From: Patescibacteria group bacterium
GTDB lineage: Bacteria > Patescibacteriota > Patescibacteriia > 2-01-FULL-39-33
Direction: 5' to 3'
DNA: 64,000 nucleotides
Assembly (NCBI GenBank): GCA_041645075.1
Contig: JBAZQS010000003.1
Location: 6,710-70,709 of the forward strand
Numbering within the stretch: the first letter of the stretch is position 1; every line of letters begins with the position of its first letter. This document shows, one piece after another, positions 1 through 63,417 of this stretch. Below the pieces are notes generated by a model, which saw nothing but the letters and a program-made list of their open reading frames with translations, searched no databases and was not told the origin of the DNA. The translations under genes and the position numbers were made by a program.

Positions 1-828
1 ACTGGTAGTAAATGAATGATCAACGCTCACCGTATCGGGCGAGGCATGAGAAATCACGCGGTAGTAATAAGTCGTGCCAGGCGTCAAACCAGTCAAAGTT
101 ACGGAATGAAAAGTAACTTTGTTTAAATCATCAATTGTTGAATGAGCATAACCGTAATTCGGCGGACTGCTAAAATCAAAAATATGCGCCTCGCTTGCCG
201 CGCCCCAAATCACCCGACTGGTGGATAAATAATTAGTTAACCAAGTAAGTGTCGCGGAATCGTTGCTAACATTTATTGACGCTTCATTGAAAATCGTTAA
301 GCCGGCCGGCACACCGCCTCCGCCGCCTTGTCCGGGCGGAGTTACCGGTGTCTGCTCGCCCTGAAAACCGACTAAAATATCAAAATTATTTAAAACATTA
401 TTTTGATAATCATTATCAGCGCCGGAATTAAAAGTCACAATTAAATCATAAGTCGTGCTGGCGTTATCCGCCAGATTGGATAAAAATGTCTCGCCTTGAC
501 CGAAAAATTCAGTCAGGCCCTTATTTAAAATCGTTTGACTCCCCTCTTTTATCTTTAAATTTAAAGCCTCGCCAAAATTATCAGGGTCATTGACATTAAT
601 CGCTTCAATGGCCACCGGTTTTGACACGCCGCTTTTATTTTTAATTTCAATCTGGGCCACTATTGAGTCGCCGGGCAAAAAATTCACCGCGCCAAAAAGC
701 GGATTGGGATTAAAGATGACGACTAAATTTTGCGGCACTTGGGCGCCTACGGTTGAAGCGAATAAAAAGCCGGCTGACACCAAGACAGCGACCCAAAAAA
801 TTAATTTTAATTTTTTTATTTTAAGCAT
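1..828 (-). CDS. Secreted protein with N-terminal signal peptide and FN3/PKD-like beta-sandwich region (5' partial: start codon at 826-828, continues past window start)
   Basis: Manual minus-strand translation from ATG (cat at 826-828): MLKIKKLKLIFWVAVLVSAGFLFASTVGAQ... ending in ...LTGLTPGTTYYYRVISHASPDTVSVDHSFTTSGT, an FN3-like 'TYYYRV' strand. No stop before window edge. Not in the ORF track because truncated. Confidence 0.5.
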   Translation of the reverse strand, partial: MLKIKKLKLIFWVAVLVSAGFLFASTVGAQVPQNLVVIFNPNPLFGAVNFLPGDSIVAQIEIKNKSGVSKPVAIEAINVNDPDNFGEALNLKIKEGSQTILNKGLTEFFGQGETFLSNLADNASTTYDLIVTFNSGADNDYQNNVLNNFDILVGFQGEQTPVTPPGQGGGGGVPAGLTIFNEASINVSNDSATLTWLTNYLSTSRVIWGAASEAHIFDFSSPPNYGYAHSTIDDLNKVTFHSVTLTGLTPGTTYYYRVISHASPDTVSVDHSFTTS

Positions 829-839
829 ATTGATTATTT

Positions 840-2483
840 TTAAACGGTTGGCGCCTCTGCTGGCGCTGGCGGAACCGGGTCAGGACCGGGAACTGGTTCG
901 GGCGCCGGAGTTGGTTCCGGTTCCGGTGTCGGCTTAATGGCCAATTCCGGCTCGGGTTCGGGTTCTGGCGCGGGAGCAATTATTTCATCGGGCAGGACGA
1001 CTTCTTCCGGCTCAATCGTCGGTTCATTAGTATTTAACGGCTCATCGGAATTTTCGCCGAGATTTTCCGCGGGCGGTTCAATGGCCGGTTCTTCTTCTTG
1101 TTCAGTATTTTCGCCGAGATTTTCCGCTGAAGATAAATCGGGATTTTCCGAGGCGATGTTATCCGGATTTTCCACGCTATTTTCATCGGACAAATTTTCG
1201 TTATCAGCCGGCTGGGCTTCTTCCACAGTGGTGGTTTCAGCCGGTTCAGCCGAGACAATTTCCTCGGCTGGTTCTTCTATGATATTTTCCGATTCGGCGA
1301 CATAATTCGGGTCGTAATCTTGAGCCGTCGGGTCGTTTTTGGATAAATTGGGATTTTTGGGCGTACCGCAATTATAATCTTGAGCATTACTATCCCAATA
1401 ACTAAGCATTAGAGAAAGATCCGAACTTGACATAATCAAAGGTTCACAAGTATGCCAACTACTGGTGGCCATACCGTCACTTGGCACAATATTTCTTTCC
1501 ATTGATTTTTTGATAACGCCATTTGAACCAGCCGGCCAATTACTGTTGATAACGGCGGGGGTTTGGTCAATAATATTGCCATCAATATCTTTCAAAATTA
1601 AGGCGCCGTTATCGTCATACTCATTGTCAAAATTAATATTGACGCTTGTTAAATCAACATCCACATTCACCAGTGAATCAACTCTATTATAATTAGCAAT
1701 TAAGAAATAACCACCAGCTAAAATGATATTTGAAGTTGGAATTTCCAAATGACCGCCGCTGCCAGAAACCGCCCCGTCAATATCCCAATTGGAAATATCA
1801 ATATCATGGCTCGTCATATTTCGCAACTCAATCCATTCGTCATGGGGTTTTAGGGTGTCGTCGTCTTCCTTGCTCCCCATCCACATAATTTCATTTATCA
1901 CCACATCCCCCGGGCCGGGAATAGGCGGCTCTTGGGACGGCCACTCGCCCGAAGAAATGCTCATAGCGATAATTTCGGTATCGGTAAAACCGCTGGTATT
2001 GTCGGGCAGATTGATTTGCCAGCCGGAAAAGACGAGGTCAAAATTACAGGACTGATTTTCTACGGCCGGGTCGGTGGTGGTCGCTAATCTGGCGCTAAAA
2101 ATAATATCCGCGTCCAGTAAAAAAGTCGTGGTCGCCGAAACAAAAGAGCTTAACGGCTGATAGATGCCGGAAATATCGTCTTTTACCTCCAAATACTGAC
2201 ATAAAGCGCCAGTGGAACTCGCCGTCACGGCCTGATAATTAAAATCAGCCGTACCCGCGTTAGCCAAAAAAACCGTGCTGGTTGCTTCGCTATCCGCGAT
2301 TAAAGTCGGCAAAAAACTGCCGCCGCCCGAGAGCGAAAAATCAAGCGTGCCGGCGGTAAAATTGGCCGCCCCTTGCTCAATATCGTTAAAATAGGCAAAG
2401 GTCTCGCCAATCGCGGAAAGTCCCGCCCAATTCAAACCAATAAGCAATAAAAGGGTGGTTAATTTTAATATTATTTTTCTCAT
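840..2483 (-). CDS. SipW-cognate-class secreted protein (TasA/camelysin-type signal) with lamin-tail domain (LTD) and acidic Pro/Glu-rich C-terminal tail
   Basis: N-terminus MRKIILKLTTLLLLIGLNWAGLSAIGETFAYFNDIEQGAANFTAGTLDFSL matches the SipW-cognate signal pattern (AYFxD..ExxxNxFxAGxLD). LTD signature GDVVINEIMWMGS...DEWIELRN...GGYFLIANYN. C-terminus low complexity PEPEPEP. Immediately downstream of sipW. Confidence 0.7.
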   Translation of the reverse strand: MRKIILKLTTLLLLIGLNWAGLSAIGETFAYFNDIEQGAANFTAGTLDFSLSGGGSFLPTLIADSEATSTVFLANAGTADFNYQAVTASSTGALCQYLEVKDDISGIYQPLSSFVSATTTFLLDADIIFSARLATTTDPAVENQSCNFDLVFSGWQINLPDNTSGFTDTEIIAMSISSGEWPSQEPPIPGPGDVVINEIMWMGSKEDDDTLKPHDEWIELRNMTSHDIDISNWDIDGAVSGSGGHLEIPTSNIILAGGYFLIANYNRVDSLVNVDVDLTSVNINFDNEYDDNGALILKDIDGNIIDQTPAVINSNWPAGSNGVIKKSMERNIVPSDGMATSSWHTCEPLIMSSSDLSLMLSYWDSNAQDYNCGTPKNPNLSKNDPTAQDYDPNYVAESENIIEEPAEEIVSAEPAETTTVEEAQPADNENLSDENSVENPDNIASENPDLSSAENLGENTEQEEEPAIEPPAENLGENSDEPLNTNEPTIEPEEVVLPDEIIAPAPEPEPEPELAIKPTPEPEPTPAPEPVPGPDPVPPAPAEAPTV

Positions 2484-2488
2484 TTTAT

Positions 2489-3016
2489 TTAGTCAACTTT
2501 ATCAATTGTTTTTGTTTTCTTTTTCTTGATTTCTGCATAAATTTTCCTGGCCTCGTCATAAATGATTATTACCGCCGGCACAATGATAATAATCATAAAG
2601 CCGATGGGTTTTTTGGCCGCGTCAACCGCATAGCCGAGATAAGGAACGGAAAAAATAACCTTGCCGACAACTTCATTGGTTAAAACCTCTTTTTGGTCTG
2701 GCGTGTTATTAGCGTCGCCTTTGGTAATGTAAATCGGCTTGCCTTCTTGAACGCGAATATCATTAATCCGATGGGTGGTTGGCGTTTGGTTTTTGCCGAT
2801 TTTACCGAAAGTGATAATGTCGCCAATCTGATAATTGGCCGCCGGCTTTATGGCTACAACACTGCCGGTTTTTATGGTTGGCTCCATTGAGCCAGAAAGC
2901 ACGGCCAAAACCTTGAAATTGCCAGTGAGGGGCAAAATGGAAATTATCAGCAAAAGAGCGATAACGGAAATTAAAACAATAACTAAATAATAAAATATTT
3001 TGAATATTTTTGGCAT
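2489..3016 (-). CDS. sipW: Signal peptidase I, SipW (archaeal/eukaryotic S26B type)
   Basis: N-terminal TM, LSGSMEPTIKTGSVV catalytic Ser motif, ITKGDANNTPD. Size 175 aa. Adjacent to three substrate-type genes. Confidence 0.8.
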   Translation of the reverse strand: MPKIFKIFYYLVIVLISVIALLLIISILPLTGNFKVLAVLSGSMEPTIKTGSVVAIKPAANYQIGDIITFGKIGKNQTPTTHRINDIRVQEGKPIYITKGDANNTPDQKEVLTNEVVGKVIFSVPYLGYAVDAAKKPIGFMIIIIVPAVIIIYDEARKIYAEIKKKKTKTIDKVD

Positions 3017-3099
3017 GTTTTATTTCTTTTTTTCTACTATTTTAAATCCTTTATGGTCCCCCACTTTTTTTAAAGTGGGGGACGAAAAGGATTCAAGTA

Positions 3100-3819
3100 T
3101 TACTGACTCGCGTCCTGATTTAGGGTGAAAATCATGGTCAAATCAAAAATGTCTCCCTGGAAATCATTGCCGGCTTCGTTGGCAAATTTAACGCCCATTT
3201 CATAGTCATACATACCCATATTGACAGGAGGTGGAAGATTGTCCAGAACATCATTCTTTAAATCATAAAAACTGATTTTCCCGTCGCCATTCTGGTCCTC
3301 TATTTTCCAGTCATTGCTCTGGCCTAATAAGGTTCCAGTACAAGTATGGTTTGAGCTGTTATATAATGCCCTTTTTTCACCGGTTAAACAATCTATACAG
3401 CCAAAATCTTTATAAATACATCTGGTAATTAACATTTCCTTTGCCATTTCGCCCGGGTGCAAATTTGTTTGACAATCAGTGTCCCCTTCCAGACAAGGAT
3501 TTTCTTCAACCACGGAATAATCACTGGTTATTTCAAGGTGATTTCCCGGCACGGTGCTGTCCCAAGATTCCTGCATTTGAACCAGAGGAATTCTAAAATC
3601 CCACGCATCCCCCGGCTTTACATCGGGGGGAGCGGTCCAGGTAGCGTGAACTCCATCTCCCCAGTCCTCATCCTGATCTCTAATTTTCAAATCCAAAATG
3701 CCGGCTGAAAATGTGTTTCCACTACTTGTTTCCGTATCCTGAAAATAGGCAATGGTTCCGCCAATGGCAATTGTTGCAACCACGGCAATAATACTCAAAC
3801 TGATTAGTATTCTTTTCAT
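3100..3819 (-). CDS. TasA/camelysin-like SipW-cognate secreted protein with EF-hand/dockerin-like Ca-binding loop
   Basis: MKRILISLSIIAVVATIAIGGTIAYFQDTETSSGNTFSAGILDLKI signal class. DQNGDGKISFYDLKND loop near C-terminus. Confidence 0.7.
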   Translation of the reverse strand: MKRILISLSIIAVVATIAIGGTIAYFQDTETSSGNTFSAGILDLKIRDQDEDWGDGVHATWTAPPDVKPGDAWDFRIPLVQMQESWDSTVPGNHLEITSDYSVVEENPCLEGDTDCQTNLHPGEMAKEMLITRCIYKDFGCIDCLTGEKRALYNSSNHTCTGTLLGQSNDWKIEDQNGDGKISFYDLKNDVLDNLPPPVNMGMYDYEMGVKFANEAGNDFQGDIFDLTMIFTLNQDASQ

Positions 3820-3837
3820 ATTAATTTTTATTTACCC

Positions 3838-3868
3838 GCCCCGCCCCTCGCGAGAGGCGGGGTTGGCC
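3838..3868. terminator. GC-rich hairpin between the two TasA-like genes (ccgcccctcgcgagaggcgggg)
   Basis: Perfect 9-bp stem read directly. No strong U-tract, so it could be a terminator or attenuator. Confidence 0.35.
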
Positions 3869-3891
3869 GGATTTAAGAAATCAGTGAGAGA

Positions 3892-4671
3892 TTATTCTGG
3901 CTGACTCTGTGGACTGCACAAAAATCTGTCGTTATTCCTTGCCTGCTCGGTGTAGAAAGAAATGTCAGATACATAGCTGTCGCTCTGAACGATGTTGCCA
4001 GTTGTCCATGGTAAACTCCAAGATACGCCAAGATAGTAGTTATTGCTACCAATAAGTGGTCCGGCGCCGGTAAACACATTTCCGTTTGCGTCAGCTAAAG
4101 GTAAGGTTACTGTTCGGGTAGGCGCAATGCCGGTGCCAATTAAATTATCACAATCTGGCTGATAAATATTGTCTCCGGGCCTTGCATTTGGGTACTCATC
4201 ATTAATCTCAGGAGTACACACATCCGCCCAAATCGTACCGGTAAGAGCTTGCGCTAATTCGCCATCGTTTAAGTTACTTGGATCCTCTTGTGTCTCTCCT
4301 GGTTCTGCTAATTCTGGTTCGGTGGAGCTCATATCGTCGTTTTTGACCGGAGTCACGGTCATACAACCCCAAGCATTGTTGTCATAAACATGCAAGCTGA
4401 TAGTTCCCTCGCCGTAATCACCGGGTTTGAGATCCGCGAAATTAAAGAATTTCTCATTGGTTAAGTCCGTCAATCTCCATTGGCCGGCGTTTGGGTCCCC
4501 GTCAACTCGCTTATTAAAATAGCCCTCATAATCCACCTTCAAATCAATTGCCCCAGCGGTAAAAGTGTTGCCAGTGCTGGTTTCAGTGTCGCTGAAGTAG
4601 GCGGTGGTCGCGCCGATGGCCACGGCGGCGACAAAGGCGATAACCGCCAAACTTAATAAAACTTTTTTCAT
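3892..4671 (-). CDS. TasA/camelysin-like SipW-cognate secreted protein
   Basis: MKKVLLSLAVIAFVAAVAIGATTAYFSDTETSTGNTFTAGAIDLKVD. Paralogous N-terminus to 3100..3819. Confidence 0.7.
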   Translation of the reverse strand: MKKVLLSLAVIAFVAAVAIGATTAYFSDTETSTGNTFTAGAIDLKVDYEGYFNKRVDGDPNAGQWRLTDLTNEKFFNFADLKPGDYGEGTISLHVYDNNAWGCMTVTPVKNDDMSSTEPELAEPGETQEDPSNLNDGELAQALTGTIWADVCTPEINDEYPNARPGDNIYQPDCDNLIGTGIAPTRTVTLPLADANGNVFTGAGPLIGSNNYYLGVSWSLPWTTGNIVQSDSYVSDISFYTEQARNNDRFLCSPQSQPE

Positions 4672-7090: not shown

Positions 7091-7091
7091 A

Positions 7092-7976
7092 TTAAGGAAT
7101 TACAACCTCAAGGGCTTTCGGCAAGACCTCTACCTCTATTTCCTTGGAAATTTTCAGGTAATCGCCGTCTATCTGGTAGGAATTCCAGCCACGATTCAAA
7201 TAAATCTTAAAATAATCATTATCCAAGGTAAAAATGTGTTTTTTCGGCTGTTGGCGCCAAAGCAAATAAAAAAGGTCGCTGATTAAAGAAAGCAGGGTTT
7301 TATTGGTAAAAACATAAAGATTTAAAATGCCGTCTTGCCAGTCAATATTCTTTTTCAATTTCAAGCCGAAATAATTTATGGCGTTAAAAATAACCAAACT
7401 ATTGCCCTTGACCCAAAATGTTTTATTTTGCGTTTTGATTTTAAATTTAATCTTTCTAATCTTAATTTTATTAAAAATAAATCGCCATAAATAGCCAAAA
7501 TAACCAAACTTATTTTTTAAATCGCCGGGGGTGCTGGCAATAACATGGGAAATATAGCCGATTGAAAGCCCCACCAAAAAATAATGATTCTGGTTTATTA
7601 GGCCAACGTCAATTTTAACGGTTTTTTCCGGTTGAGCCAATAACTTTATCGCTTGCTTGACGGTCAGAGGAATTCCCAGATCCGTGGCCATAACATTGGC
7701 CGAACCAAAAGGAATGATGCCAAGCGGGGCTGATAATTTATTATTTAAAATTGTCTTCGTCGCCACCTTAACCGTGCCGTCACCGCCCACCGCCACCACC
7801 AACTCCGTTCCCAAAAAATTATGCCCCGAAATCGCGGTTTCAAAATTATCATTTAAATAAAACAAATCAACTTGGTAGCCAAGCTCTTCAAGCTTATTTC
7901 TCACTAAGCCCTCAATATCCTGCTTGGTCATCAGGCCGGCGGATTTGTTGAAAATTACTAAAGCAATTTTGGTCAT
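7092..7976 (-). CDS. Diacylglycerol/lipid kinase catalytic-domain protein (YegS/BmrU-like)
   Basis: VAVGGDGTV, IIPFGSANVMATDLGIP motifs of DAGK_cat. Confidence 0.6.
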   Translation of the reverse strand: MTKIALVIFNKSAGLMTKQDIEGLVRNKLEELGYQVDLFYLNDNFETAISGHNFLGTELVVAVGGDGTVKVATKTILNNKLSAPLGIIPFGSANVMATDLGIPLTVKQAIKLLAQPEKTVKIDVGLINQNHYFLVGLSIGYISHVIASTPGDLKNKFGYFGYLWRFIFNKIKIRKIKFKIKTQNKTFWVKGNSLVIFNAINYFGLKLKKNIDWQDGILNLYVFTNKTLLSLISDLFYLLWRQQPKKHIFTLDNDYFKIYLNRGWNSYQIDGDYLKISKEIEVEVLPKALEVVIP

Positions 7977-8030: not shown

Positions 8031-8585
8031 TTACCACCAAACTTTTTTAAGGCCCAACAAATATGAAATCAGGTTGACAAGGGGATGGAGAATTAAAGTG
8101 ATTAAAAGCGAGGCCAAAATAATTTCTACCGACGGCTTATAAATCAAGGAGATGAAAATAAAAAAACCGATGATAAAATCAAGCTGGTCAAAAATCGGCC
8201 AGGACTGGCCCGAGGCGAGATGCAAACGCCGCTTCAAAAAACTTTTAATTAAGTCGCCCAAAATCGCGCCCAAGCCGGCCAGCACGCCAAAAGACAAAAA
8301 CATGGCATCATAATTTACAATGGAAATCTGATAAAAAAAATCATAACCAAACAAAGATGCCTGAATAATAGTGACCACTAAAGACATAATTACCGCCGCG
8401 ATAATCCCCCGCCAGGTTTTATTCTGGCCGAATAAAAAATCTTGGCCCAATTTCAAGCCGCCATCAATCGGCTTGGCCATTGATTTCAATAAGCCGAGTT
8501 TATCAAAAATTACCGGCGCCATATTGGCAAAATAAGCCGGCAAAAGTAAATAAAAACTTTTTATCAGATAATCAAGGTAGGGCAT
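8031..8585 (-). CDS. CDP-archaeol synthase-like (DUF46/CarS family) integral membrane cytidylyltransferase
   Basis: LLPAYFANMAPV...PIDGG...GQNKTWRG, resembling CarS conserved blocks. Multi-TM. Adjacent to the lipid kinase. Confidence 0.45.
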   Translation of the reverse strand: MPYLDYLIKSFYLLLPAYFANMAPVIFDKLGLLKSMAKPIDGGLKLGQDFLFGQNKTWRGIIAAVIMSLVVTIIQASLFGYDFFYQISIVNYDAMFLSFGVLAGLGAILGDLIKSFLKRRLHLASGQSWPIFDQLDFIIGFFIFISLIYKPSVEIILASLLITLILHPLVNLISYLLGLKKVWW

Positions 8586-8850: not shown

Positions 8851-9025
8851 AGATGGTTACAAAACTATATTTCTCTAAATTTGTCCTTTTTGGCTGCGAC
8901 TGCGTCGGGCGGGCGCAAAATGATTTTCACCGTAGCCCCGCTATGGCTCAAGTCATTTTGCTGGCCCTCCTTGTCTCGCTCAAAAAGTCCTAAATTTATA
9001 GCTAAAATAGTTTTGTAACCATCTC
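8851..9025. mobile_element. MITE-like element, copy 2 (inverted relative to copy 1), overlapping the stop codon of the 9024..10715 gene
   Basis: GAGATGGTTACAAAACTAT at 8851 and ATAGTTTTGTAACCATCTC at 9007-9025. Confidence 0.6.
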
Positions 9026-10715
9026 ATTGTATATTCTTGTCGTCTTCCGATTTTGGATTAGCCGTAAAGCTCACGGGTTTTTTCCCTAAAGCGGTTGATA
9101 AGCTTATGGGCGGTTCGCTAATTTCTAATTTTTTTTCACTAATAATGGCCTGCTCGTTTTTTAACTCGCCTTTTTGATTGCCGGCCCGAAATTTAATCAA
9201 ACAATCTTGGCAGAAAACCGGCCTAATTCCGTCGGGTTTGAAATTAACCGTGGTCGCCACGCCGCAAGAAGAGCATTGAACCGTATATTGTTCCGGATTA
9301 GAAATATTTTTTTTGTTTTTCTTTTTCAAGTCCTGGTTAAAATTTTGGCTTTGAGGCGGACTGGGCAGCTGACGGTTAAAATTTTCTGTCCGGTCTTTGC
9401 CGCCGACCATTTGCACCACTTTATCGCTTAAATCAACCCCGCTCCAACGATTAATTTTCTCCTCTACTTCCGCCTTCGGATTGGCATATCTCTCGCGTGA
9501 AACCCGTATCACCTTCTCCGCGCTATCAGTGATAAATTCATCATATAGGGGCGGCAAGGTTGTCGCCGAAAATGGGTCGGAAGCCACGCCGTCAATCATC
9601 AATTTCAAATAAATATGATAGGCGGGCAGGCTGACTAAGTCCTCCTCAATAAAGGTCGGGGTAAATTCTTTGACTAATTCTTCCGCGTCAGAAGCGCCGA
9701 CCCGAAAGCCGATTAACGAGCCCACATTGCCGAATACGGCGTCGGAAACCTCCTCGGGCAGCTGTTTTATGTATTGATGGGCAATAATTAAATTAAGACG
9801 ATATTTTCTGGCTTCTGATAAAATATTAGAAAAACTTTCATTGGCAAAATTCTGGAATTCATCCACATAGAGATAAAAGTCCTGGCGCTCCAGCTCCGGT
9901 ATGTCAACCCGGCTCATGGCCGACAAATATAATTTCGTCACAATCATTGAGCCCAATAACTGCATGGTATCTTCGCCAATTCTGCCTTTTGATAAATTTA
10001 AAATCAAAATTTTCCGGTTATCAATTATTTCTCTTAAGTCAAAGGTTGATTTCACCTGGCCGACAATATTCCTGATTAAAACATTGGACAAAAATTGCCC
10101 GACTTTATTTTGAATCGGCGAAATAACTTCCTGCAAAACGCGGTCATTCCACTGGGTATATTCATTGGTCCAAAATGACTTAACGACCGGGTCTTTGATT
10201 TTTTCCACGACTTTTCTGCGGTAATCCTTATCCACCAGAATTCTCATAATACCCAAAAGCGTGCTACTCGGATAGTCCAAGAGCGCCAAAATCGCATTTC
10301 TTAAAATATATTCCAATCTCGGGCCCCAGCTATCGGCAAATTGTTTTTTAAATACACCCACCAAGCCGGAAGCAATGAAATGTTTGCTGTTTTCATCAAC
10401 GGCCTCTAAAATATTAAAAGCCACGGGATGTTCGGTATCGGCCGGATTAAAATAAATGAGATCATTTATCCGGTTTGGTGGAATGAAATTCAACAGCTTT
10501 TCCGCCGTATCGCCATGCGGGTCAATATAACAGCAGCCGTCGCCCCTGATAATATCGGAAATAATCATATTTTCCAGCAGACAGGTCTTACCCATGCCGG
10601 TTTTGCCAATAATATACATATGGCGGCGACGGTCGTCTCTTTTTATGCCAAAGGTTTTTCTTTCGCTGCGAAAATTGGTTTCGCCAAAAATTGTTATATC
10701 TTTATTGTCGGTCAT
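9024..10715 (-). CDS. VirD4/TraD/TrwB-like P-loop coupling ATPase (soluble, no TM) with C-terminal zinc ribbon
   Basis: Walker A GKTGMGKT, YIDPHGD (compare TrwB DPKGE), Walker B LYVDEFQNF, IIAHQ. C-terminal CSSCG...CQDC. Confidence 0.5.
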   Translation of the reverse strand: MTDNKDITIFGETNFRSERKTFGIKRDDRRRHMYIIGKTGMGKTCLLENMIISDIIRGDGCCYIDPHGDTAEKLLNFIPPNRINDLIYFNPADTEHPVAFNILEAVDENSKHFIASGLVGVFKKQFADSWGPRLEYILRNAILALLDYPSSTLLGIMRILVDKDYRRKVVEKIKDPVVKSFWTNEYTQWNDRVLQEVISPIQNKVGQFLSNVLIRNIVGQVKSTFDLREIIDNRKILILNLSKGRIGEDTMQLLGSMIVTKLYLSAMSRVDIPELERQDFYLYVDEFQNFANESFSNILSEARKYRLNLIIAHQYIKQLPEEVSDAVFGNVGSLIGFRVGASDAEELVKEFTPTFIEEDLVSLPAYHIYLKLMIDGVASDPFSATTLPPLYDEFITDSAEKVIRVSRERYANPKAEVEEKINRWSGVDLSDKVVQMVGGKDRTENFNRQLPSPPQSQNFNQDLKKKNKKNISNPEQYTVQCSSCGVATTVNFKPDGIRPVFCQDCLIKFRAGNQKGELKNEQAIISEKKLEISEPPISLSTALGKKPVSFTANPKSEDDKNIQ

Positions 10716-10746: not shown

Positions 10747-12327
10747 TCAAACCGTGGGTAAGTTTGCTGGGGGTGTCGGTGGCTTTCGCGGCTCGCCTCG
10801 ATTCGGCGAAGCGGGTGGTGCCGGCGGTTCAAAAATATTTTGTTTTCCTTCGGTGGGCAAAGCCAGGGGTGACGGAGCCGTCGGAATATGTGGCCTGGCC
10901 CCAGCATACGCGGGGCTAACCCCAGCATACGCGGGGCTCGCCACTGGCCCTTCAAAAACCGGCCTGGTTTCTTTCTTGACAATAAAATCGCGATTGCCAA
11001 TGGGGAGCCGGGTTGGCGGCACCACTTTCTTGCTCTCAATTTTTTCCACCATCGGCGCTTTGACGGTCATCACCGGGAAATGCCAAAGCGAGGCCAATTC
11101 CTCATTATTTAAAAGCATATTAGCCACGTTATCGCCATAATAATTGGTTCGTTTTATATAATACCTTAAAATTCTATTCTGTCTGTAAGCCACTCTTTTT
11201 TTTACCCGAAAATAATCCACGCTTGTTTTTGTTCTGGGGCCGGGCTTAAAGCCATTGGCATTGCTCACGCTAAACTGCTTGATTGAACCGATAATGGCGG
11301 CTACGCCCCGGCCTTTATTAAAAACCCCTTGTTCGGCCAGATAAACCAAACGGAATTTAACTCTAAAAGGGTGCTTGGCAAGTTTTTTCTGGATATTTTC
11401 CAAAAGCAATCTATCGCCCGGCGACATATTGAAAAGCCGAATCGTATCTTCCTTTTTCTTTTCTACTTCACCGGTCGCGCTCATTATACTGGTCAATAAA
11501 TTAACGCCTTGGGCCACCGCATTAACGGGTGCGTTGAGAATTTTATCCCCGAAAGTTGAGGGAGCGGTATAAATCTGGCCGCTAAATTCCTTAACAATTT
11601 TTTTTGCTTTTTCCCCCCACCCCGGCTCCGCCGGCAGAGGCGTAACCACCAGTTGCAGCCAGGCCTGTTCACCGGGCCCAAGCCGGCTTAAAATTTCCAA
11701 TAATCCGGCCATTGGGTCAAGAAATGTTTGGGTTAAAGTATGTTCAAATTCGGGATAAGTCCTGATTGGATAAGGATAGTCCTTGGTTAAAATAAATTCC
11801 GTGCCCCATAAATTATATTTTTCATTGGGAAAACGGAGGTGGGCATAATCCTGCGCGTAGTCCTCCACTTCGGTAATTTCCGCGTCCGGATATTGGGCAT
11901 AGATGGCGGCCTCGGCCAAGTCGCGAAGGTGGCTTGGCGTCCTGATTAAAAATTGAATATAGCCCTCTAAGCTTACAACTTCAAAAGAAAAACTTTCTTG
12001 ATTTTTTCCGGTCCAATATCTTTCTATTAAATTGCCGCTTGTTTGAGCGCCGGCCAAAGCCGCGAATATATTTTCTACGGCTTTTGGCGTCTGTTCGTTA
12101 TTTTTAGGAATATCAACGGCTAATAGGACGTGCTGCCATTTGCCGGCATATTGGCCCTGACGAGCGTCTAACCAGACCCGATACATAACAACGGTAAGCA
12201 AAATTAAAAAAATAACCCAGCCGCCGCCCAGAAATAATTGCCGGGCGATGGTCACCGGATCCTGCGAGCCAAAAACCGAAAATCGCTCCCACCAAGAAGC
12301 CAGGTCTAAGTTGAATTCAATATTCAT
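10747..12327 (-). CDS. Membrane-anchored hypothetical protein (1 N-terminal TM) with Pro/Ala-rich C-terminal repeat PAYAG; probably co-operonic with the VirD4-like ATPase
   Basis: TM GGGWVIFLILLTVVMY. Tandem DNA repeat ccccagcatacgcggggct x2 at ~10902-10945. Confidence 0.45.
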   Translation of the reverse strand: MNIEFNLDLASWWERFSVFGSQDPVTIARQLFLGGGWVIFLILLTVVMYRVWLDARQGQYAGKWQHVLLAVDIPKNNEQTPKAVENIFAALAGAQTSGNLIERYWTGKNQESFSFEVVSLEGYIQFLIRTPSHLRDLAEAAIYAQYPDAEITEVEDYAQDYAHLRFPNEKYNLWGTEFILTKDYPYPIRTYPEFEHTLTQTFLDPMAGLLEILSRLGPGEQAWLQLVVTPLPAEPGWGEKAKKIVKEFSGQIYTAPSTFGDKILNAPVNAVAQGVNLLTSIMSATGEVEKKKEDTIRLFNMSPGDRLLLENIQKKLAKHPFRVKFRLVYLAEQGVFNKGRGVAAIIGSIKQFSVSNANGFKPGPRTKTSVDYFRVKKRVAYRQNRILRYYIKRTNYYGDNVANMLLNNEELASLWHFPVMTVKAPMVEKIESKKVVPPTRLPIGNRDFIVKKETRPVFEGPVASPAYAGVSPAYAGARPHIPTAPSPLALPTEGKQNIFEPPAPPASPNRGEPRKPPTPPANLPTV

Positions 12328-13773: not shown

Positions 13774-14706
13774 TTATTTTCTATTTTTAAAATTTTTACT
13801 AAGATTGTGCCAAGTAACCACCAGCGGGCTGGCCACGAAAATTGAAGAATAGGTGCCGACAATAATGCCGACAATCAAGACCAAGGCAAAATTGACAATG
13901 GTTTTGCCGCCCAAAAAATATAAGGCGGATAAAACCAATAAAATCGTCAGGGAAGTGTTGATGGAGCGGGCAATGGTTTGATTGATACTGTCATTAACCA
14001 CTGCCTCAAAATCAGCGCTATAATGCTTGGCCAAATTTTCGCGCGTCCGGTCAAAAACCACGATGGTGTCGTGAACCGAAAAACCCAAAATCGTTAAAAG
14101 CGCGGTAATAAATAAGCTGTCCACCTCAAAGCCGGCGAAATGTCCTAAAATCGCAAATAAGCCAACCACAATTAGAATATCATGAATAAGGGCGATGACC
14201 GCGGCCACGCCGTATTTCCAGGATTCAACCGGTTTGGAAACTTTTCTAAAAGCAAAGGCAATATACAAAATAATTGCCAACGAGGCCAAGACAATTGCCA
14301 TCCAGGCCTTCTTAGCCAATTCCTGGCCGATAATTGGGCCGATTGACTCAAACCTTTCTTCAACTAAAGCGGGTATGGAATCATTTTTAACGTCCTTAAA
14401 TTTGCTTTTTAATTGACTTAAAATTCTTTGATGGGTCTCTTCGTCAACGGTTTTGAAACGCAAGATTATATTCCGAGCGCCCGCCGGCTGGACTCTTAAC
14501 TCGCCCAAATTCAAGTCCGACAAACCGCTTTGGATCTGGTCAATGGCGGGACGCTCAATATTGAATTTAATTTCCATTAAACTCCCGCCCGTAAAATCAA
14601 TGCTGGGCTTGAGCCCCCAGATAAGCAAACTAATAATCGCCGCCATAACCATTATTAATGACAGCGTATAATTATATTTTCTATTTTGGATTATTTTTAA
14701 TTTCAT
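13774..14706 (-). CDS. secF: Protein-export membrane protein SecF
   Basis: FTGGSLMEI, DILIVVGLFAILG, FDRTREN. Confidence 0.85.
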   Translation of the reverse strand: MKLKIIQNRKYNYTLSLIMVMAAIISLLIWGLKPSIDFTGGSLMEIKFNIERPAIDQIQSGLSDLNLGELRVQPAGARNIILRFKTVDEETHQRILSQLKSKFKDVKNDSIPALVEERFESIGPIIGQELAKKAWMAIVLASLAIILYIAFAFRKVSKPVESWKYGVAAVIALIHDILIVVGLFAILGHFAGFEVDSLFITALLTILGFSVHDTIVVFDRTRENLAKHYSADFEAVVNDSINQTIARSINTSLTILLVLSALYFLGGKTIVNFALVLIVGIIVGTYSSIFVASPLVVTWHNLSKNFKNRK

Positions 14707-16535
14707 GTTATTGTTTTTTTTCTAACCCCATAAAGCCATCTATTCTGAAAGGGCCGCCAGCCACTGACTAATCGTAAAAATTGTCTAGTAATGGTAATGG
14801 CGGAAAACATCGAAACAAGAATACCTATGGCTAGGGTTAGGGCAAATCCCCGAATAATACTCGAGCCAAACCAGTACAAAACAACGCAAGTTATTAAAGA
14901 TGAAACATTTGAGTCGCGAATGGAAAACCAGGCGCGATGAAAGCCCTCTTTTACGCCGGCGGCCAAGTCCTTGCCGGCGCGCAGTTCTTCTTTTAGCCGT
15001 TCAAAAATAAGAATATTGGCGTCCACGGCCATGCCGACCGAAAGAATAAAGCCGGCAATGCCCGCCAAAGTTAAAGTGATGTGTAAAAATTTGAAAAGCG
15101 CCAGAGCAATTGTGGTATAAATAAATAAGGCGATGACCGACAAAACGCCGGGCAGACGGTAATATAAAATCATAAAAATCACCACTAACAACAAGCCGAA
15201 CACACCCGCCTGCAAGCTTCTTTGGACCGACTCGTTGCCTAAGCTGGCGCCGACCGTGGTCTGCGAAATCAAATTTATGGGCACGGGCAGAGCGCCGGCA
15301 TTTAATCGCTGGGCCAATAATTTGGCCTCTTGCGTGGTAAAACTGCCGCTAATAACCGCCTTGCCCGATAAAATCGGCTCATTGACCCTGGGAATGCTAA
15401 TGGGCGAGCCGTCCAAAAAAATGGCAACCGGCTTACCTACATTCTTAGTAGTAATATCGGCAAACAATTTCGCGCCCTCATCGTTGAACTCTAAACCCAC
15501 TTCCGGCACGCCGGAATTCGGGTCAAATTCAACATTTGCCTTTTTTAATTGCTGGCCGGTTAAGCCCGTGTTTTTCCATTCCGAATTAATTTTTAAGCCC
15601 AAATCCGCCGCGGTCTTGGTTTGAAATAAGATGTGACGGACATCAATTTCTTTATTATCCCCTTCGCCTCTTTCCGCTTCTTTTTTGATAATATGATAAC
15701 CGAATTGCGTCTTGACCAAGTTGGGATAAATTTCTCCCACTTTTAATTTATTAAAAGCCACGTCGTCAAATTCCGGCACGAAAGCGCCTTTTTTTACGCC
15801 CTGATACAATCCGCCATTATCTTTACTGCCCGAATCATCAGAATACTGCTTGGCCAGTTTCGCAAAATCAGCGCCCGCTAAAATTTGCGGTAAAACGGCT
15901 TGCGCTTTTTCCTCAATGGCTTTATTTTCCCGGTCTAATTGCTGTTGCTCTGACGGCGTTAATTGGCTGGCCTCCGGATTTTCTTCCTTAAATTCCAATA
16001 ACGGCGTCTCGCCAATCATTTTAATCGCCTGATTGACATCATAAACGCCAGCTAATTCCACAATCACGCGCCAACTGCTTCCCACTTGATTGGTTTGCAC
16101 CAATGGTTCGGAAACGCCCAAAGCATTAACGCGGCGTTCAATCACATCTCTGACCCCGCCCAAAGCATCGGCCCGCTCGCTTGGGTTAATTTGCGAGACA
16201 TCGGCATCATAAACCAAGTGCGTGCCACCCAATAAATCCAAACCCAAACTAAAGGGCAGGCCGTAATTAATTAAGTCAATTTCTTTAATATTTTTAAACT
16301 TTAGGCCTTTGGTATTATCTAATGGGCTCTTTTCAATTTTCGGCCAAATCCGCCAATCGCTGACTACGGGAACAGTTGATAAGCCCTGGTCTAATTTTTG
16401 GGCGACGATATTTTTAAAGCCGAAAACATCTATGAAAAAAGTAAAAATAAATAAAATTACGATGCCGAAAATAAGCCAACGGAGCTTGCCCCTTGGACCG
16501 GGAGTAAAAAAATTTTGAAATGGATTTTTTGCCAT
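14703..16535 (-). CDS. secD: Protein-export membrane protein SecD with embedded parvulin (PrsA/PpiC-like) domain
   Basis: LGLDLLGGTHLVYDAD and LPVPINLISQTTVGASLG (SecD). The internal segment FAKLAKQYSDDSGSKDNGGLYQGVKKGAFVPEFDDVAFNKLKVGEIYPNLVKTQFGYHIIKKEAERG closely parallels the B. subtilis PrsA parvulin core (...[17 protein letters not shown]). Confidence 0.85.
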   Translation of the reverse strand: MAKNPFQNFFTPGPRGKLRWLIFGIVILFIFTFFIDVFGFKNIVAQKLDQGLSTVPVVSDWRIWPKIEKSPLDNTKGLKFKNIKEIDLINYGLPFSLGLDLLGGTHLVYDADVSQINPSERADALGGVRDVIERRVNALGVSEPLVQTNQVGSSWRVIVELAGVYDVNQAIKMIGETPLLEFKEENPEASQLTPSEQQQLDRENKAIEEKAQAVLPQILAGADFAKLAKQYSDDSGSKDNGGLYQGVKKGAFVPEFDDVAFNKLKVGEIYPNLVKTQFGYHIIKKEAERGEGDNKEIDVRHILFQTKTAADLGLKINSEWKNTGLTGQQLKKANVEFDPNSGVPEVGLEFNDEGAKLFADITTKNVGKPVAIFLDGSPISIPRVNEPILSGKAVISGSFTTQEAKLLAQRLNAGALPVPINLISQTTVGASLGNESVQRSLQAGVFGLLLVVIFMILYYRLPGVLSVIALFIYTTIALALFKFLHITLTLAGIAGFILSVGMAVDANILIFERLKEELRAGKDLAAGVKEGFHRAWFSIRDSNVSSLITCVVLYWFGSSIIRGFALTLAIGILVSMFSAITITRQFLRLVSGWRPFQNRWLYGVRKKTIT

Positions 16536-27390: not shown

Positions 27391-28524
27391 TTAAGATTTT
27401 CTGGAGATTATGCTTGAACGATAAATATTGAGCATCATACCCGCCGCGGACATAACCACAATTAAAAAACTGCCCCCATAGCTGATAAACGGCAAAGAAA
27501 TGCCCGTGACCGGCAAAAGACCGATGCCCATGCCGATATTGATAAAAACCTGGACAAAAATCAGGATTAAAACCAACAATGATAAAAATAGGCCGAAGTC
27601 ATCCGGCGCGCTACGGGCAATCCGATAAATTCGGTATAACAATAAAATAAACAAGCCCAGAACCAAAACCACACCCACAAAACCCAGCTCTTCAGCCATG
27701 ACCGAAAAAATAAAATCGGTTTGGCTCTCCGGAATGAATTTTAATTGGCTTTGCGAACCAAAACCCAATCCCCGGCCCATTAGCCGGCCCGCGCCCACCG
27801 CGATAATGGACTGCCGGACATTATAACCTCGCCCTTGTGGGTCTAAAGAAGGATTAATAAATGTTTTAATGCGGTCCCTTTGATAATCTTCAAAAACCAA
27901 AAACCAGCTTGTTAAAAAAACCAGCGCCATCAACCCTAAAACCATGATGATATGCCATTTATTTTTTGTCACCAAAAAGAAAGAGAGAAACCAGATAAAA
28001 AACAAAACCAGGGCCGAACCAAAATCCGGCTGAATCATCACCAAGCCAAGGGGCATGAGCATAATCAAACCGACAAAAATTAATTGCCATAGTTTATGAA
28101 TGGTTCGGGCGTGGCGGCTGTAGACATCAGCCAGACAGAGAATTAAAAAAAGTTTCATCAATTCAACCGGCTGAAAACTAAAAAAACCAAAGGAAAACCA
28201 GCCGCGCGTGCCGCGTATGGTCGAGCCCAGCGGGGTTAAGACCAAAACCAATAAAACCAAGCCGATTATATAGCCAAGCCAGCACCACCGTCGCCAACTA
28301 TGATAATCAATATTGGCGAAGAACAACATAAGCGCCAAACCGGCCGCGAGCCAAATTAACTGCTTCTGAAAATTCATAAATTGCCCTTGACCCTGGCCCA
28401 AAGCCACGCTATAAATCGCGGCCAAGCCAAAAAAAATCAAAAGGATTACGGCCATAAAAAAAAGCCAGTCAATTTTTTTTAAAAAAGGAAAATACCGATC
28501 AAAAATCATATAGTTATTGTTCAA
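27391..28524 (-). CDS. ftsW: SEDS family peptidoglycan glycosyltransferase FtsW/RodA
   Basis: 10 TM. SQSQLKFIPESQTDFIFSVMAEELGFVG. Confidence 0.8.
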   Translation of the reverse strand: MNNNYMIFDRYFPFLKKIDWLFFMAVILLIFFGLAAIYSVALGQGQGQFMNFQKQLIWLAAGLALMLFFANIDYHSWRRWCWLGYIIGLVLLVLVLTPLGSTIRGTRGWFSFGFFSFQPVELMKLFLILCLADVYSRHARTIHKLWQLIFVGLIMLMPLGLVMIQPDFGSALVLFFIWFLSFFLVTKNKWHIIMVLGLMALVFLTSWFLVFEDYQRDRIKTFINPSLDPQGRGYNVRQSIIAVGAGRLMGRGLGFGSQSQLKFIPESQTDFIFSVMAEELGFVGVVLVLGLFILLLYRIYRIARSAPDDFGLFLSLLVLILIFVQVFINIGMGIGLLPVTGISLPFISYGGSFLIVVMSAAGMMLNIYRSSIISRKS

Positions 28525-29758
28525 ATCCGAGGGCGGAGATGGGATTCATTTTGGCGGCGCGCCGGGCCGGATAAAAACCAAAAACCAAACCAACCAGCGC
28601 CGAAAAACCAAAAGCGATGAGCACGGAAAAAATTGGCAATTTAAACGCCCAAGTAAAACCAAATTGCCCAGCGATAATAGCAATTAAATAAGTAAAGCTG
28701 ATGCCCGCCGCTATTCCTATTATACCTCCAAAAACCGTTACCGCAATTGCCTCCCAGAGAAATTGCCATAAAATCTCCAGTTGCCGAGCACCCACGGATT
28801 TGCGCAAGCCGATTTCAAAAGTTCTTTCCGTAACCGAAACATACATAATATTCATAATGCCGATGCCGCCTACCAATAAAGAAATGCTGGCGATGGCCGT
28901 GAGCAACAATGTTATCCCGCCAAAAACCGTGTTGATTGTTTGCCGGGCCTGCTCGGTGGTGGTCACCGCAAAATCATCATCTTGGAAATTTTCAATTTTG
29001 TGGCGTTCCCTTAACAGGGTGGCAATTTCATCAGCGGTTTCATTTTCAATTAACGGATCCTTTACTTGGGCCATAATAAACATAACATAATCAATGCCCA
29101 TGACTAATTTTTGCGCCGTTCTAATCGGCAGATACAGCATCTCATCAAAATTCAAACCAAAACCAGCTCCCCGCTCTTCTAATACGCCGACCACCTTAAA
29201 TTTATTCTTCCCGATTTTAATGTTTTGGTTTATGGGATTTTGGTTGCCGAATAAATCAGAGGCGACTTTACTGCCCAAAACCGCCACCCGGGCCAATTCC
29301 TTATCTTCTTCATGGCTAATAGGCCGACCCAGAGCTAATTTACTGCGGTCAATATTTATCACGTCAGCCGAAGCACCCATAAAATTAATTATTCTATTTT
29401 GGTCCTCATAAGAAACCACGGACTGCCCCATAACCGCGGCATAATAATCCTTGATATTCGGCAATTTGCTGATGGCCTCGGCGTCCTCATTCTTTAGGGT
29501 GGTTATCTGCACGCCTTGCGCCCGGCTTATATCTGAAGAGACCGCATCACTATTGGGTACTTTGGTTTCTACGTGGATAACATCGGTGCCAAAACTTTCT
29601 AACTGGCCGAGAATTAAGCCCTTTATGCTCTCGCCGGCCGAGAGCACGATAATCACGGCCGCAATGCCGATAATAATACCAAAAATTGTCAAAAACGTAC
29701 GGCTTTTATTAAGCAAGAGCGACCGCCAGGCAAGTTTTAGGGGTAAAATAATATTCAT
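28514..29758 (-). CDS. ABC transporter permease, FtsX/MacB-like
   Basis: N-terminal TM, large periplasmic loop, C-terminal FtsX 3-TM bundle. Confidence 0.8.
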   Translation of the reverse strand: MNIILPLKLAWRSLLLNKSRTFLTIFGIIIGIAAVIIVLSAGESIKGLILGQLESFGTDVIHVETKVPNSDAVSSDISRAQGVQITTLKNEDAEAISKLPNIKDYYAAVMGQSVVSYEDQNRIINFMGASADVINIDRSKLALGRPISHEEDKELARVAVLGSKVASDLFGNQNPINQNIKIGKNKFKVVGVLEERGAGFGLNFDEMLYLPIRTAQKLVMGIDYVMFIMAQVKDPLIENETADEIATLLRERHKIENFQDDDFAVTTTEQARQTINTVFGGITLLLTAIASISLLVGGIGIMNIMYVSVTERTFEIGLRKSVGARQLEILWQFLWEAIAVTVFGGIIGIAAGISFTYLIAIIAGQFGFTWAFKLPIFSVLIAFGFSALVGLVFGFYPARRAAKMNPISALGFEQ

Positions 29759-29767
29759 TTTTAAATT

Positions 29768-31003
29768 TTATTCATATCTCAACGCCTCAATGGGATTTAA
29801 TTTTGCGGCTTTTCTGGCCGGGTAAATACCGAAAATCAAACCAACGCCGGCGGCCACGCCCAGACCAAGTAGAATTGAACTGGGCGTGATGACCAGAGCC
29901 CAATTATAACCCAAATATCTTGCCACCAGGGCGACTAACGCTGATAGCGCGCCGCCCATAATAACACCGAGCAAACCGCCCAATAAAGCAACCGTGATGG
30001 TTTCCAAAATAAATTGCGCTAAAATATTTGACCGTTTCGCGCCCACGGCTCGGCGCAAGCCCACTTCCCTGACTCTTTCATTGACGGCCGCCAGCATAAT
30101 ATTCATGACGCCGACACCGCCGACAACCAGAGAAATGGCGGCGATGGCCGCCAAGAAAAATTTTAGGGCGTCGGTAATGGTGAGTAATGCCTGAATGGCG
30201 TCCTTGGTGTTTCTCACCGAAAAATCATCATCGCCAGCGGCCGAGATATTGTGCCGGTCGCGCAATAATAACGCGATATCTTCGGTGGCCTTATCCATAT
30301 TTTCGGCGCGATTAATTTTAACCCTGATATAATTAACATATCTTACGCCCAATAGTATTTTTTGAGCGGTTTGCGCCGGCACTAAAACAATATTATCTTG
30401 ATTTTGAAAACCGGCCGTTCCCCTTTCCTTCATTACCCCGATGACTTCAAAAAATTCATTTTTAATCTTTATTTTTTTACCCAAAGGGTTATTATCATCA
30501 AATAAATCTTTCCCCGCTTGATCGCCAAGCACGGCCACGCGAGCCGAAGCCGCGTCTTCTTCCGGAGTAAAAAAACGGCCATTCGCCACTTCGGTATTTT
30601 CTACTGACGGATAACCGCTCATGACGCCATTAAATTGGGTGGCGTTTTTAATATTTTGGTAACTGATATTGCCCATCCCCGTATTATATGAACTCACGGC
30701 CGCAATATTGGGCACTTGTTCGGCGATGGCTTGAGCGTCTTCATATTTTAAAGTCGTGATAATAATGCCCAGAACCGAAGCGGGCGGGCCGTTTTGGTCG
30801 GATTTTCCCGGCAAAATTCCAACCAAATTTGTGCCGATTGAATTTAATTGGTTTATAATCAAACTTTGAGCGCCGGCGCCCACCGACATAATAATCACGA
30901 CCGAAGCAATGCCGATGATAATGCCCAAGCCAGTTAAAAAACTCCGGACTTTATTGGTTCGTAACACGGAAAAGGATAGTTTAAGAGTATCAGTAAATCG
31001 CAT
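29768..31003 (-). CDS. ABC transporter permease, FtsX/MacB-like (paralog)
   Basis: Same architecture as 28514..29758. Confidence 0.8.
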   Translation of the reverse strand: MRFTDTLKLSFSVLRTNKVRSFLTGLGIIIGIASVVIIMSVGAGAQSLIINQLNSIGTNLVGILPGKSDQNGPPASVLGIIITTLKYEDAQAIAEQVPNIAAVSSYNTGMGNISYQNIKNATQFNGVMSGYPSVENTEVANGRFFTPEEDAASARVAVLGDQAGKDLFDDNNPLGKKIKIKNEFFEVIGVMKERGTAGFQNQDNIVLVPAQTAQKILLGVRYVNYIRVKINRAENMDKATEDIALLLRDRHNISAAGDDDFSVRNTKDAIQALLTITDALKFFLAAIAAISLVVGGVGVMNIMLAAVNERVREVGLRRAVGAKRSNILAQFILETITVALLGGLLGVIMGGALSALVALVARYLGYNWALVITPSSILLGLGVAAGVGLIFGIYPARKAAKLNPIEALRYE

Positions 31004-31023
31004 TAGTTAAAAATTTATAAATA

Positions 31024-58997: not shown

Positions 58998-63417
<4,420 letters not shown>

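Follow-up and report, generated by a model that had tools for sequence, protein, structure and literature searches.

The first 4,671 positions of the 64,000-nucleotide stretch analysed here (the window, from contig JBAZQS010000003.1 of the Patescibacteria group bacterium assembly GCA_041645075.1) hold five genes which, taking the analysis as a whole, probably form a SipW-dependent, TasA-type surface-fibre cassette of this bacterium. The broader statement, that the locus encodes a TasA-type secreted assembly processed by SipW, is made with high confidence, and the specific roles proposed for the individual proteins are put forward tentatively. The system is of a known kind, whose proteins have already been named by automated annotation, and its conserved arrangement appears undescribed. 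Its distinguishing parts are a lamin tail domain (LTD) protein with a putative donor strand, a large family of membrane-anchored proteins, and natural fusions between the peptidase and its substrate.

The five genes occupy 1..4671 head to tail on the minus strand, with gaps of 72, 83, 5 and 11 nucleotides between successive genes. They are arranged in the order 259-amino-acid (aa) protein, 239-aa protein, SipW, 547-aa LTD protein, and an anchor-type fifth protein. The features of the cassette, with the basis of each assignment in brackets, are as follows.

3892..4671, minus strand: 259-aa TasA-like subunit, first gene of the cassette (TIGR04088, NCBI name, AlphaFold2 model, match to 8AUR)
3100..3819, minus strand: 239-aa TasA-like subunit with an insert bearing a Ca loop (TIGR04088, NCBI name, hhalign bridge)
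3262..3297, minus strand: DQNGDGKISFYD loop, residues 175-186 of the 239-aa protein, EF-hand/dockerin-like (column conservation)
2489..3016, minus strand: SipW-type (archaeal/endoplasmic reticulum (ER)-type) signal peptidase I, 175 aa (TIGR02228)
840..2483, minus strand: 547-aa LTD protein, whole gene (TIGR04088, PF00932)
2331..2483, minus strand: signal peptide and divergent SipW/donor-strand motif of the LTD protein, residues 1-51 (TIGR04088, family consensus)
1929..2330, minus strand: N-domain of the LTD protein, residues 52-185 (AlphaFold2, Foldseek, hhalign)
1329..1916, minus strand: lamin tail domain (190-307 by Pfam) and family-conserved extension (308-385) (PF00932, alignment)
843..1328, minus strand: acidic, proline-rich low-complexity tail of the LTD protein, residues 386-547 (composition, alignment)
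1..828, minus strand: fifth gene, cut by the window edge, 467 aa in full on L001 (open reading frame (ORF), Pur_ac_phosph_N, hhalign, transmembrane segments)

On L001, an overlapping public contig of identical sequence, the cluster borders on a PEBP-family gene upstream and alaS downstream. Identical proteins are present in NCBI from a 71.8-kb contig of a metagenome-assembled genome (MAG) labelled 'Patescibacteria group bacterium', where they are named TasA family protein (twice), signal peptidase I, lamin tail domain-containing protein and fibronectin type III domain-containing protein. We discarded the label given by JGI, 'predicted ribosomally synthesized peptide with SipW-like signal peptide', because the products are folded proteins of 240-550 aa. 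Promoter and terminator scans of the cassette stayed at chance level and are uninformative on operon structure.

The evidence for SipW processing begins at the N termini. The model of SipW-cognate signals (TIGR04088, cognate_SipW, cutoff 19 bits) matched the 259-aa protein with 36.9 bits, the 239-aa protein with 31.5 bits and, marginally, the 547-aa protein with 20.5 bits, all three being encoded within about 1.7 kb of sipW; the fifth protein gave no TIGR04088 match. The original prediction, made from the sequence of this stretch, had claimed a locus of sipW with TasA-class genes and a shared SipW-cognate signal in three flanking proteins, and both claims are borne out by these scores and by that of the peptidase on TIGR02228 (below), in what is a Patescibacteria genome. 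Across the 64-kb window, a strict motif pattern matches the two small proteins only, the variant in the 547-aa protein being one residue shorter. A motif hidden Markov model (HMM) run over 4016 ORFs of related loci produced no match outside the TasA-like and LTD classes, and the signal motif is not a chance feature. Cleavage by SipW is predicted between A24 and Y25 in the two small proteins and between A30 and Y31 in the LTD protein, with a Phe at the predicted P2' position in all three (F26 in the 259-aa protein, F32 in the LTD protein). In each of the three families, the segment that follows the cleavage site is the most conserved part. The candidate donor strand of the 259-aa protein spans approximately residues 25-40 and is followed by the jelly-roll core. 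The motif is divergent in the LTD family, where 52 aligned homologues give the consensus T-x-A-x-F-x-D-x-E-x-S-x-x-N...LDFS and a narrow motif HMM finds it in 64 of 120 members.

Species-representative genomes were then scanned with the LTD-family alignment, which matched 538 stretches, many of them in the LTD only, and returned 80 loci; the counts given here come from profile scoring of all ORFs in these loci. In this sample, selected by LTD-protein similarity, the LTD gene has sipW next to it or fused with it in 59 of 72 loci, one or more TasA-like genes lie upstream in 51 of 64, and a homologue of the fifth protein follows immediately downstream in 50 of 71. The cassette is complete in 36 of the 57 loci with both flanks available, which is how the comparative-genomics check proposed in the original prediction turned out, and the exceptions are mostly LTD proteins of other phyla that match in the LTD only. 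Almost all loci come from Patescibacteria (Kuenen-, Buchanan-, Moran-, Davies-, Woese-, Roizman- and Levybacteria, Dojkabacteria, WWE3 and MAGs labelled Saccharibacteria). TasA homologues were already known from Patescibacteria through surveys based on Pfam (PMC9245690); the literature that we searched contains no mention of the LTD partner, the anchor family or the cassette, and no link of the LTD to TasA or SipW.

The peptidase itself reached 128.7 bits with TIGR02228, the model of archaeal-type signal peptidase I (cutoff 51.85), and 118.7 bits with the Bacillus SipW equivalog (NF046067), below the cutoff of 190. By these scores, the window SipW appears to be the same type of enzyme as Bacillus SipW and not its orthologue. 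Residues S43, H82, D101 and D107 are conserved to at least 99% among 70 homologues, Ser-His-Asp chemistry being typical of the archaeal/ER-type signal peptidase, and the transmembrane segments at 10-28 and 138-156 are the N- and C-terminal helices. In 12 of the species-representative loci (L032, L044, L046, L053, L055, L057, L063, L068 at 9413-10792, L069, L074, L076 and L084), SipW and the LTD protein are encoded in one ORF, so that the enzyme and its substrate are genetically linked. These 12 independent ORFs run from a first transmembrane segment through the catalytic domain, a second transmembrane segment, a charged loop and a third transmembrane segment to an AYFSD-type motif and then directly to the LTD, without the sandwich N-domain. 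The topology is self-consistent, with the cleavage site and the catalytic domain on one membrane side, and such a natural enzyme-substrate fusion could, judging from its layout, process itself. Because the N-terminal motif is present and the sandwich domain absent, the LTD protein of the fusion variant would be only a donor and not an acceptor of a strand. The fusions are thus a genomic argument for which proteins SipW processes.

They also speak against the idea, to which we give almost no credence, that this SipW is simply the general signal peptidase of the organism and that its position beside the substrates is functionally meaningless. It is true that it is the only ORF in the window with the signal-peptidase Ser-box motif, and that it passes the archaeal-type signal peptidase I model and not the Bacillus SipW equivalog. 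However, the neighbourhood has been preserved in 59 of 72 loci from many lineages, the peptidase is fused to the LTD substrate in 12 loci, and the Phe at P2' in all three substrates is the feature that is reported in PMC10269814 to make TasA a poor substrate of LepB and to be incompatible with that enzyme. A LepB gene could lie in the genome outside the window.

We next consider how TasA-like the two small proteins are. Protein searches returned 3088 homologues of the 259-aa protein and 251 of the 239-aa protein. PF12389 (Peptidase_M73, cutoff 22.5) gave 33.8, 27.3 and 22.6 bits for the three motif-bearing proteins with the alignment confined to model positions ~4-50 of 196, and BLASTP among the same three proteins found likeness confined to the first ~46 residues. 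Sequence searches of the PDB with the 259-aa and 547-aa proteins and with the family profiles of both small proteins found nothing relevant. The TasA equivalog NF046066 (cutoff 450) scored 14.1 bits for the 547-aa protein and did not match the 259-aa or 239-aa protein; judged by these scores, the window proteins are not TasA orthologues. Evidence on the fold comes from models of the 259-aa protein and of the N-domain of the LTD protein. In the AlphaFold2 model of the 259-aa protein (predicted local distance difference test, pLDDT, 86.2), the core is confident and residues 23-39 are unplaced. The best PDB match of this model is the TasA fibre 8AUR (E=1.5e-4, probability 1.00, template modelling (TM) scores 0.38/0.41), the Pyrobaculum bundling pilin AbpA (7UEG) ranks third, and the Sulfolobus 0406 filament and CanA are also among the matches.

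Iterated jackhmmer searches gave cross-matches between the families; as profile drift might explain them, they were checked again with hhalign after trimming of the alignments. The claim of direct end-to-end homology between the 259-aa and 239-aa families was dropped, as an initial hhalign value of 99.8% fell to 5% once the N terminus was trimmed; the shared N terminus had driven the score. The connection runs instead through a bridge family of short (~190-235 aa) TasA-like proteins encoded at the corresponding place in sister loci. When the signal and motif regions were trimmed off, hhalign matched the bridge proteins with 97.5% to the 259-aa family, with 98.5% to the 239-aa family, with 98.6% to the LTD protein's N-domain and with 98.7% to that of the fifth protein, and the LTD, used as a negative control, gave 0.2%. 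PF12389 matched end to end above its cutoff in 5 of 10 bridge proteins, and the mature part of the 239-aa protein aligned to the N-domain of the fifth protein at 95.9%. Membership of the mature domains in the TasA superfamily is therefore based on the fold match and the bridge family and not on direct comparison. The locus so holds four TasA-superfamily domains of very unequal size, of which the smallest versions are reduced to a generic sandwich.

The 239-aa protein contains in addition the DQNGDGKISFYD loop, in which all of 61 homologues keep D175 and D179 and at least 90% keep G180 and D186. The EF-hand models PF00036, PF13202 and PF13405 (cutoff ~25; 25.4) gave sub-threshold scores of 14.3, 12.4 and 12.5 bits, and dockerin (PF00404) had no match at E<=1 in this protein, which has one loop and not paired repeats. 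The EF-hand/dockerin-like loop that had been predicted here is real and conserved. From its conservation, the single DxNxDGxIxxxD loop is best regarded as a genuine Ca-binding-type loop, not an EF-hand or dockerin domain.

These results have to be weighed with the possibility, which we hold to be unlikely, that SipW processes secreted or cell-surface proteins which form no polymer (a monomeric coat, a matrix, or camelysin-like cell-bound proteins) and that the motif serves peptidase recognition only. Such proteins would fit the alignment of only the N-terminal 30-48 residues to PF12389, the high divergence of the mature domains from one another, the modest structural match to TasA and the complete sandwich modelled for the N-domain of the LTD protein, and TIGR04088, as a signal-peptide model, is silent on polymerisation. 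Yet the post-cleavage segment is the most conserved part and is nevertheless unplaced in the monomer model, as expected of an intermolecular strand like that of TasA, and the top structural matches are donor-strand fibres. A companion family with the same fold, a membrane anchor and no such segment (the fifth protein, described below) is also hard to explain for a simple coat.

The LTD protein combines the SipW signal with several further parts. PF00932 matches residues 190-307 with 51.3 bits (cutoff 34.3; model positions 4-104 of 109), so the LTD called in the original prediction is supported by this model, and it is followed by an extension (308-385) with the pattern SMERN...WHTC...YWD...GTP...NLS, which contains invariant columns in 52 homologues. 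The tail had been described as acidic and rich in proline, and its composition agrees (residues 385-547: 28% D+E, 20% P, 1% K+R); it varies in length and sequence among homologues, and no LPXTG motif was found at the C terminus. The AlphaFold2 model of the N-domain (pLDDT 91.5) shows a compact Ig-like sandwich of seven strands; its Cys pair, C95 and C146, is conserved, and its Foldseek matches are PapD-like, Ig-like, macroglobulin-like and chaperone-usher domains. In the model, this domain is thus a reduced Ig-like sandwich rather than a jelly roll of TasA size. Its relationship to the N-domain of the fifth protein is close, as hhalign with the signal region removed gave 99.0% (E=5e-18). The combination of LTD and TasA-type signal had been called unusual, a description that does not survive the protein search: there are 267 significant relatives, about 50 aligned relatives share the whole architecture, and the protein already has a name in NCBI. 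As a separate observation, L003 encodes, two genes beyond the cassette on its downstream side, a 1187-aa surface protein (12362-15925) with domains of the VWA, SdrD_B, LTD, DUF4215 and FN3-like types, and LTDs recur in large adhesin-like proteins of such genomes.

The sister loci show that the LTD is not a fixed part of this slot. L086, a 163-kb Aenigmarchaeota contig, encodes three SipW-motif proteins at 5375-10872, including a TasA-like/VWA fusion and a VWA protein, as well as a fourth TasA-like protein without a detected motif and an adjacent peptidase of the SipW type (E=3.5e-30); DPANN archaea may have a related system that carries another passenger domain. L087 (414-7156), a 7.7-kb contig labelled 'Candidatus Heimdallarchaeaceae' with a GC content of 34.6%, holds two TasA-like genes, a close SipW (E=4e-68) and a homologue of the fifth protein, and the protein in its LTD slot has the N-domain and no detectable LTD. 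We did not accept the label of L087, a 7.7-kb contig that carries the same cassette as the window, as a sign of archaeal origin; the label may reflect mis-binning or gene transfer. The replacement or loss of the LTD in these loci suggests that the slot holds a swappable passenger. Two side observations concern the surroundings of the cassette. In the JGI 3300072015 locus of P0012, it is followed by two CLIPPER-domain surface proteins and a sortase, and some lineages may combine it with sortase-dependent surface proteins. In L003, a secDF pair lies only ~2 kb upstream; SecD of this locus (1498-3318) and of the window (14703..16535, minus strand) has a peptidyl-prolyl isomerase (rotamase) domain inserted between SecD_1st and the P1 head.

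The presence of the LTD also allows a different function, namely that the cassette serves mainly the capture of extracellular DNA or nutrients, with the LTD tethering DNA-handling activities or binding extracellular DNA and the TasA-like proteins forming a surrounding matrix. Patescibacteria are generally known to depend on scavenged nucleotides. The ExeM model is matched by 6 of 52 LTD-family members through the LTD, and LTDs occur in ExeM itself (PMC6085458), in archaeal proteins of extracellular DNA metabolism (PMC5118699) and in ComEC/ComA-like proteins. However, no nuclease or hydrolase domain was found in the LTD protein or elsewhere in the cassette, the LTD of ExeM is dispensable for DNA degradation and its role is unknown (PMC6085458), the strongly acidic tail should repel DNA, and the LTD slot of sister loci can be occupied otherwise (by VWA fusions in L086, by a protein without a detectable LTD in L087). 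On these grounds we consider DNA capture a very improbable main function.

The fifth protein has an ordinary signal peptide (…STVGA/QVPQ, the slash marking the cleavage site) and no SipW motif. It continues with a TasA-superfamily N-domain (~30-160), a Gly-rich linker, an FN3-like domain (186-276), a low-complexity spacer and a C-terminal transmembrane block from ~364 with segments at 364-382, 421-439 and 444-462. Pur_ac_phosph_N (PF16656, cutoff 30) scored 45.7 bits with the fragment in the window and 43.3 bits with the complete protein. The prediction of a secreted FN3-like protein downstream was thus sound as to the signal peptide and this domain, and it missed the TasA-superfamily membership and the membrane anchor. 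An exhaustive search with the N-domain found 924 clusters (50% identity) at E<=1e-3, of which 474 reach E<=1e-10, and the domain is almost always directly N-terminal in proteins of ~410 aa. A hydrophobic helix is present in the last 60 residues of 128 of 133 full-length family representatives. A SipW-type motif was detected in 2 of 150 family representatives versus 229 of 240 TasA-like controls, and in 0 of 34 fifth-protein homologues of the examined loci. On this comparative evidence, the fifth protein is a fourth TasA-superfamily member in the locus, membrane-anchored and without the donor-strand motif. Its family is large and uniformly built, and annotation stops at 'FN3 domain-containing'.

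The fifth protein could also be an assembly factor: a fibre would be made, and this protein would act as a membrane-tethered, chaperone- or usher-like factor or as an inhibitor that holds subunits at the membrane, with the LTD protein a minor subunit decorating the shaft. The homology of the N-domains of the fifth and LTD proteins (99.0%) fits this idea, as do the facts that the window LTD protein, with both motif and sandwich, could in principle donate and accept a strand and that the Foldseek matches of the sandwich include the chaperone-usher chaperones Caf1M and FaeE. Moreover, TasA-type pili of B. cereus need an extra factor, as stated in bioRxiv 10.1101/2024.02.27.582368. In contrast, the LTD protein of the 12 fusions has the motif and no sandwich and would be a donor only, which favours an end position over decoration of the shaft, and the similarity to chaperones reflects a generic Ig-like fold, with TM scores of 0.34-0.39. 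We give this alternative a small probability.

The mechanism that we propose for a TasA-type surface fibre draws on structures from other organisms. In TasA fibres, the stretch just behind the SipW site (residues 28-38) is inserted into the following subunit, and each subunit has to be complemented before it can extend a strand of its own (PMC9674648). The N terminus of TapA is similar to that of TasA and is thought to supply the first strand (PMC9674648); the Ig fold of TapA is complete, and the protein acts at initiation only (PMC10151520). AbpB has likewise been proposed as an initiator carrying adhesin domains (PMC9245690). The unplaced residues 23-39 of the 259-aa monomer parallel the TasA donor strand at 28-38. 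By analogy, the precursors would be exported by the Sec system and cleaved by SipW after the Ala residues given above. The LTD protein, acting like TapA or AbpB, would donate the first strand, start polymerisation and end up at the distal end of the fibre, where the LTD and its acidic, proline-rich tail would be displayed as a binding module. The shaft would consist of the 259-aa and 239-aa proteins, added on the membrane-proximal side as they emerge from Sec and are cleaved, with Ca2+ possibly stabilising or bridging the 239-aa subunit. As the donor strand is absent from the fifth protein, it would at most accept the last strand, stop growth and tie the fibre to the cytoplasmic membrane as terminator.

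Several observations weigh against this reading and are the reason why it is not stated more firmly. The profiles of the small-protein families match no TasA sequence in the PDB, the TM scores of the 259-aa model to TasA are modest, and the relationship between the two shaft candidates depends on a transitive bridge. TIGR04088 is detected at E<=0.01 in 14 of 52 members of the LTD family, in which the motif is weak. TasA is absent from the top 50 Foldseek matches of the N-domain of the LTD protein, and this domain, modelled as a complete sandwich, may lack an open groove for an incoming strand. The homologous domain of the fifth protein may be closed in the same way, which would weaken the case for this protein as acceptor and anchor and make a membrane-tethered assembly factor likelier than an acceptor. 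The function of prokaryotic LTDs is unknown (PMC6085458). Finally, the locus counts describe the LTD-protein family by which the loci were chosen and not Patescibacteria overall.

A wider proposal, speculative and rather doubtful at present, is that Patescibacteria, and possibly DPANN archaea, make a polar, membrane-anchored and so far undescribed pilus of the TasA type whose assembly order is encoded by which components have a donor strand. It would comprise an initiator or tip protein with a donor strand and swappable passengers (LTD, VWA or others), a shaft of subunits that can both donate and accept, and a large, C-terminally anchored, acceptor-only family as terminator and anchor. It would serve as a second fibre system, independent of type IV pili, for host attachment by ultrasmall episymbionts. 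Cultivated Patescibacteria live attached to other microbes, and work on attachment in the cultivated Saccharibacteria has so far dealt with type IV pili. If the proposal is true, it offers testable candidates for host attachment, with a tip module that can be recognised and a membrane anchor among its parts, for a very large share of bacterial diversity that is mostly uncultured, and extends the TasA-type donor-strand fibres from scaffolds of the biofilm matrix to anchored, pilus-like organelles. It also provides a first hypothesis for a protein family of 924 clusters, whose member in the window is named only 'fibronectin type III domain-containing protein'.

Some features elsewhere in the window deserve a brief record. 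The gyrB product (60017..63418, plus strand; 1133 aa) contains an intein (Intein_splicing, residues 469-889) that splits DNA_gyraseB from Toprim. A VirD4/TrwB-like coupling ATPase with a C-terminal treble-clef zinc finger adjoins a 526-aa protein without a Pfam match (9024..10715 and 10747..12327, both minus strand), and the pair may belong to the type IV secretion system of Patescibacteria of PMC12102498. A CarS-like protein (CDP-archaeol synthase family, PF01864, 120.9 bits; 8031..8585, minus strand) lies beside a protein with a diacylglycerol-kinase domain (7092..7976, minus strand) in this bacterial genome. Two permeases of the MacB/FtsX type are encoded near an HlyD-like protein (28514..33595, minus strand), and further along (38660..40792, minus strand) is a 710-aa protein with a sub-threshold match to MG2 (macroglobulin).

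The closest known counterpart of the cassette is the tapA-sipW-tasA operon of Bacillus subtilis (8AUR, 5OF1). In both systems, a dedicated signal peptidase of the archaeal type is encoded together with its substrates, the segment directly after the cleavage site (A/x-F-x-D...G-x-L-D-L) lies at the position of the TasA donor strand, and the subunit is predicted to be a jelly-roll or beta-sandwich protein, TasA being the best structural match. TapA and the LTD protein both share the N-terminal motif with the subunits on a different body, a likeness that is functional only. In contrast to the B. subtilis operon, the similarity to PF12389 is restricted to the N terminus in the window and the TasA equivalog fails (14 versus 450 bits). 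The window also has two paralogues of the shaft type, an accessory protein with an LTD and an acidic, Pro-rich tail, a different gene order (subunits, sipW, accessory, anchor), and a membrane-anchored superfamily member without a donor strand, for which there is no described counterpart in Bacillus. Pyrobaculum AbpA/AbpB (7UEG), the Sulfolobus 0406 threads and CanA likewise have TasA-related donor-strand subunits, and the multi-domain accessory protein of Pyrobaculum has been proposed as fibre initiator and adhesin, as is suggested here for the LTD protein. The Pyrobaculum operon differs from the window in having no dedicated peptidase (PMC9245690), no LTD and no membrane-anchored protein of the acceptor type. 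ExeM and other bacterial LTD proteins have in common with the window protein an Ig-like PF00932 domain in a secreted protein; unlike ExeM, the window protein has no catalytic domain, and its LTD is combined with a donor-strand motif, a TasA-superfamily sandwich and the signal for SipW. Chaperone-usher and sortase pili, which have no evolutionary relationship to the cassette, follow an analogous logic to that predicted here, with a binding subunit at the end, a strand-complemented shaft and a distinct last subunit for anchoring. Unlike these pili, the cassette encodes no chaperone, usher or sortase; its assembly would be self-driven after cleavage by SipW, and anchoring would be achieved by a transmembrane helix.

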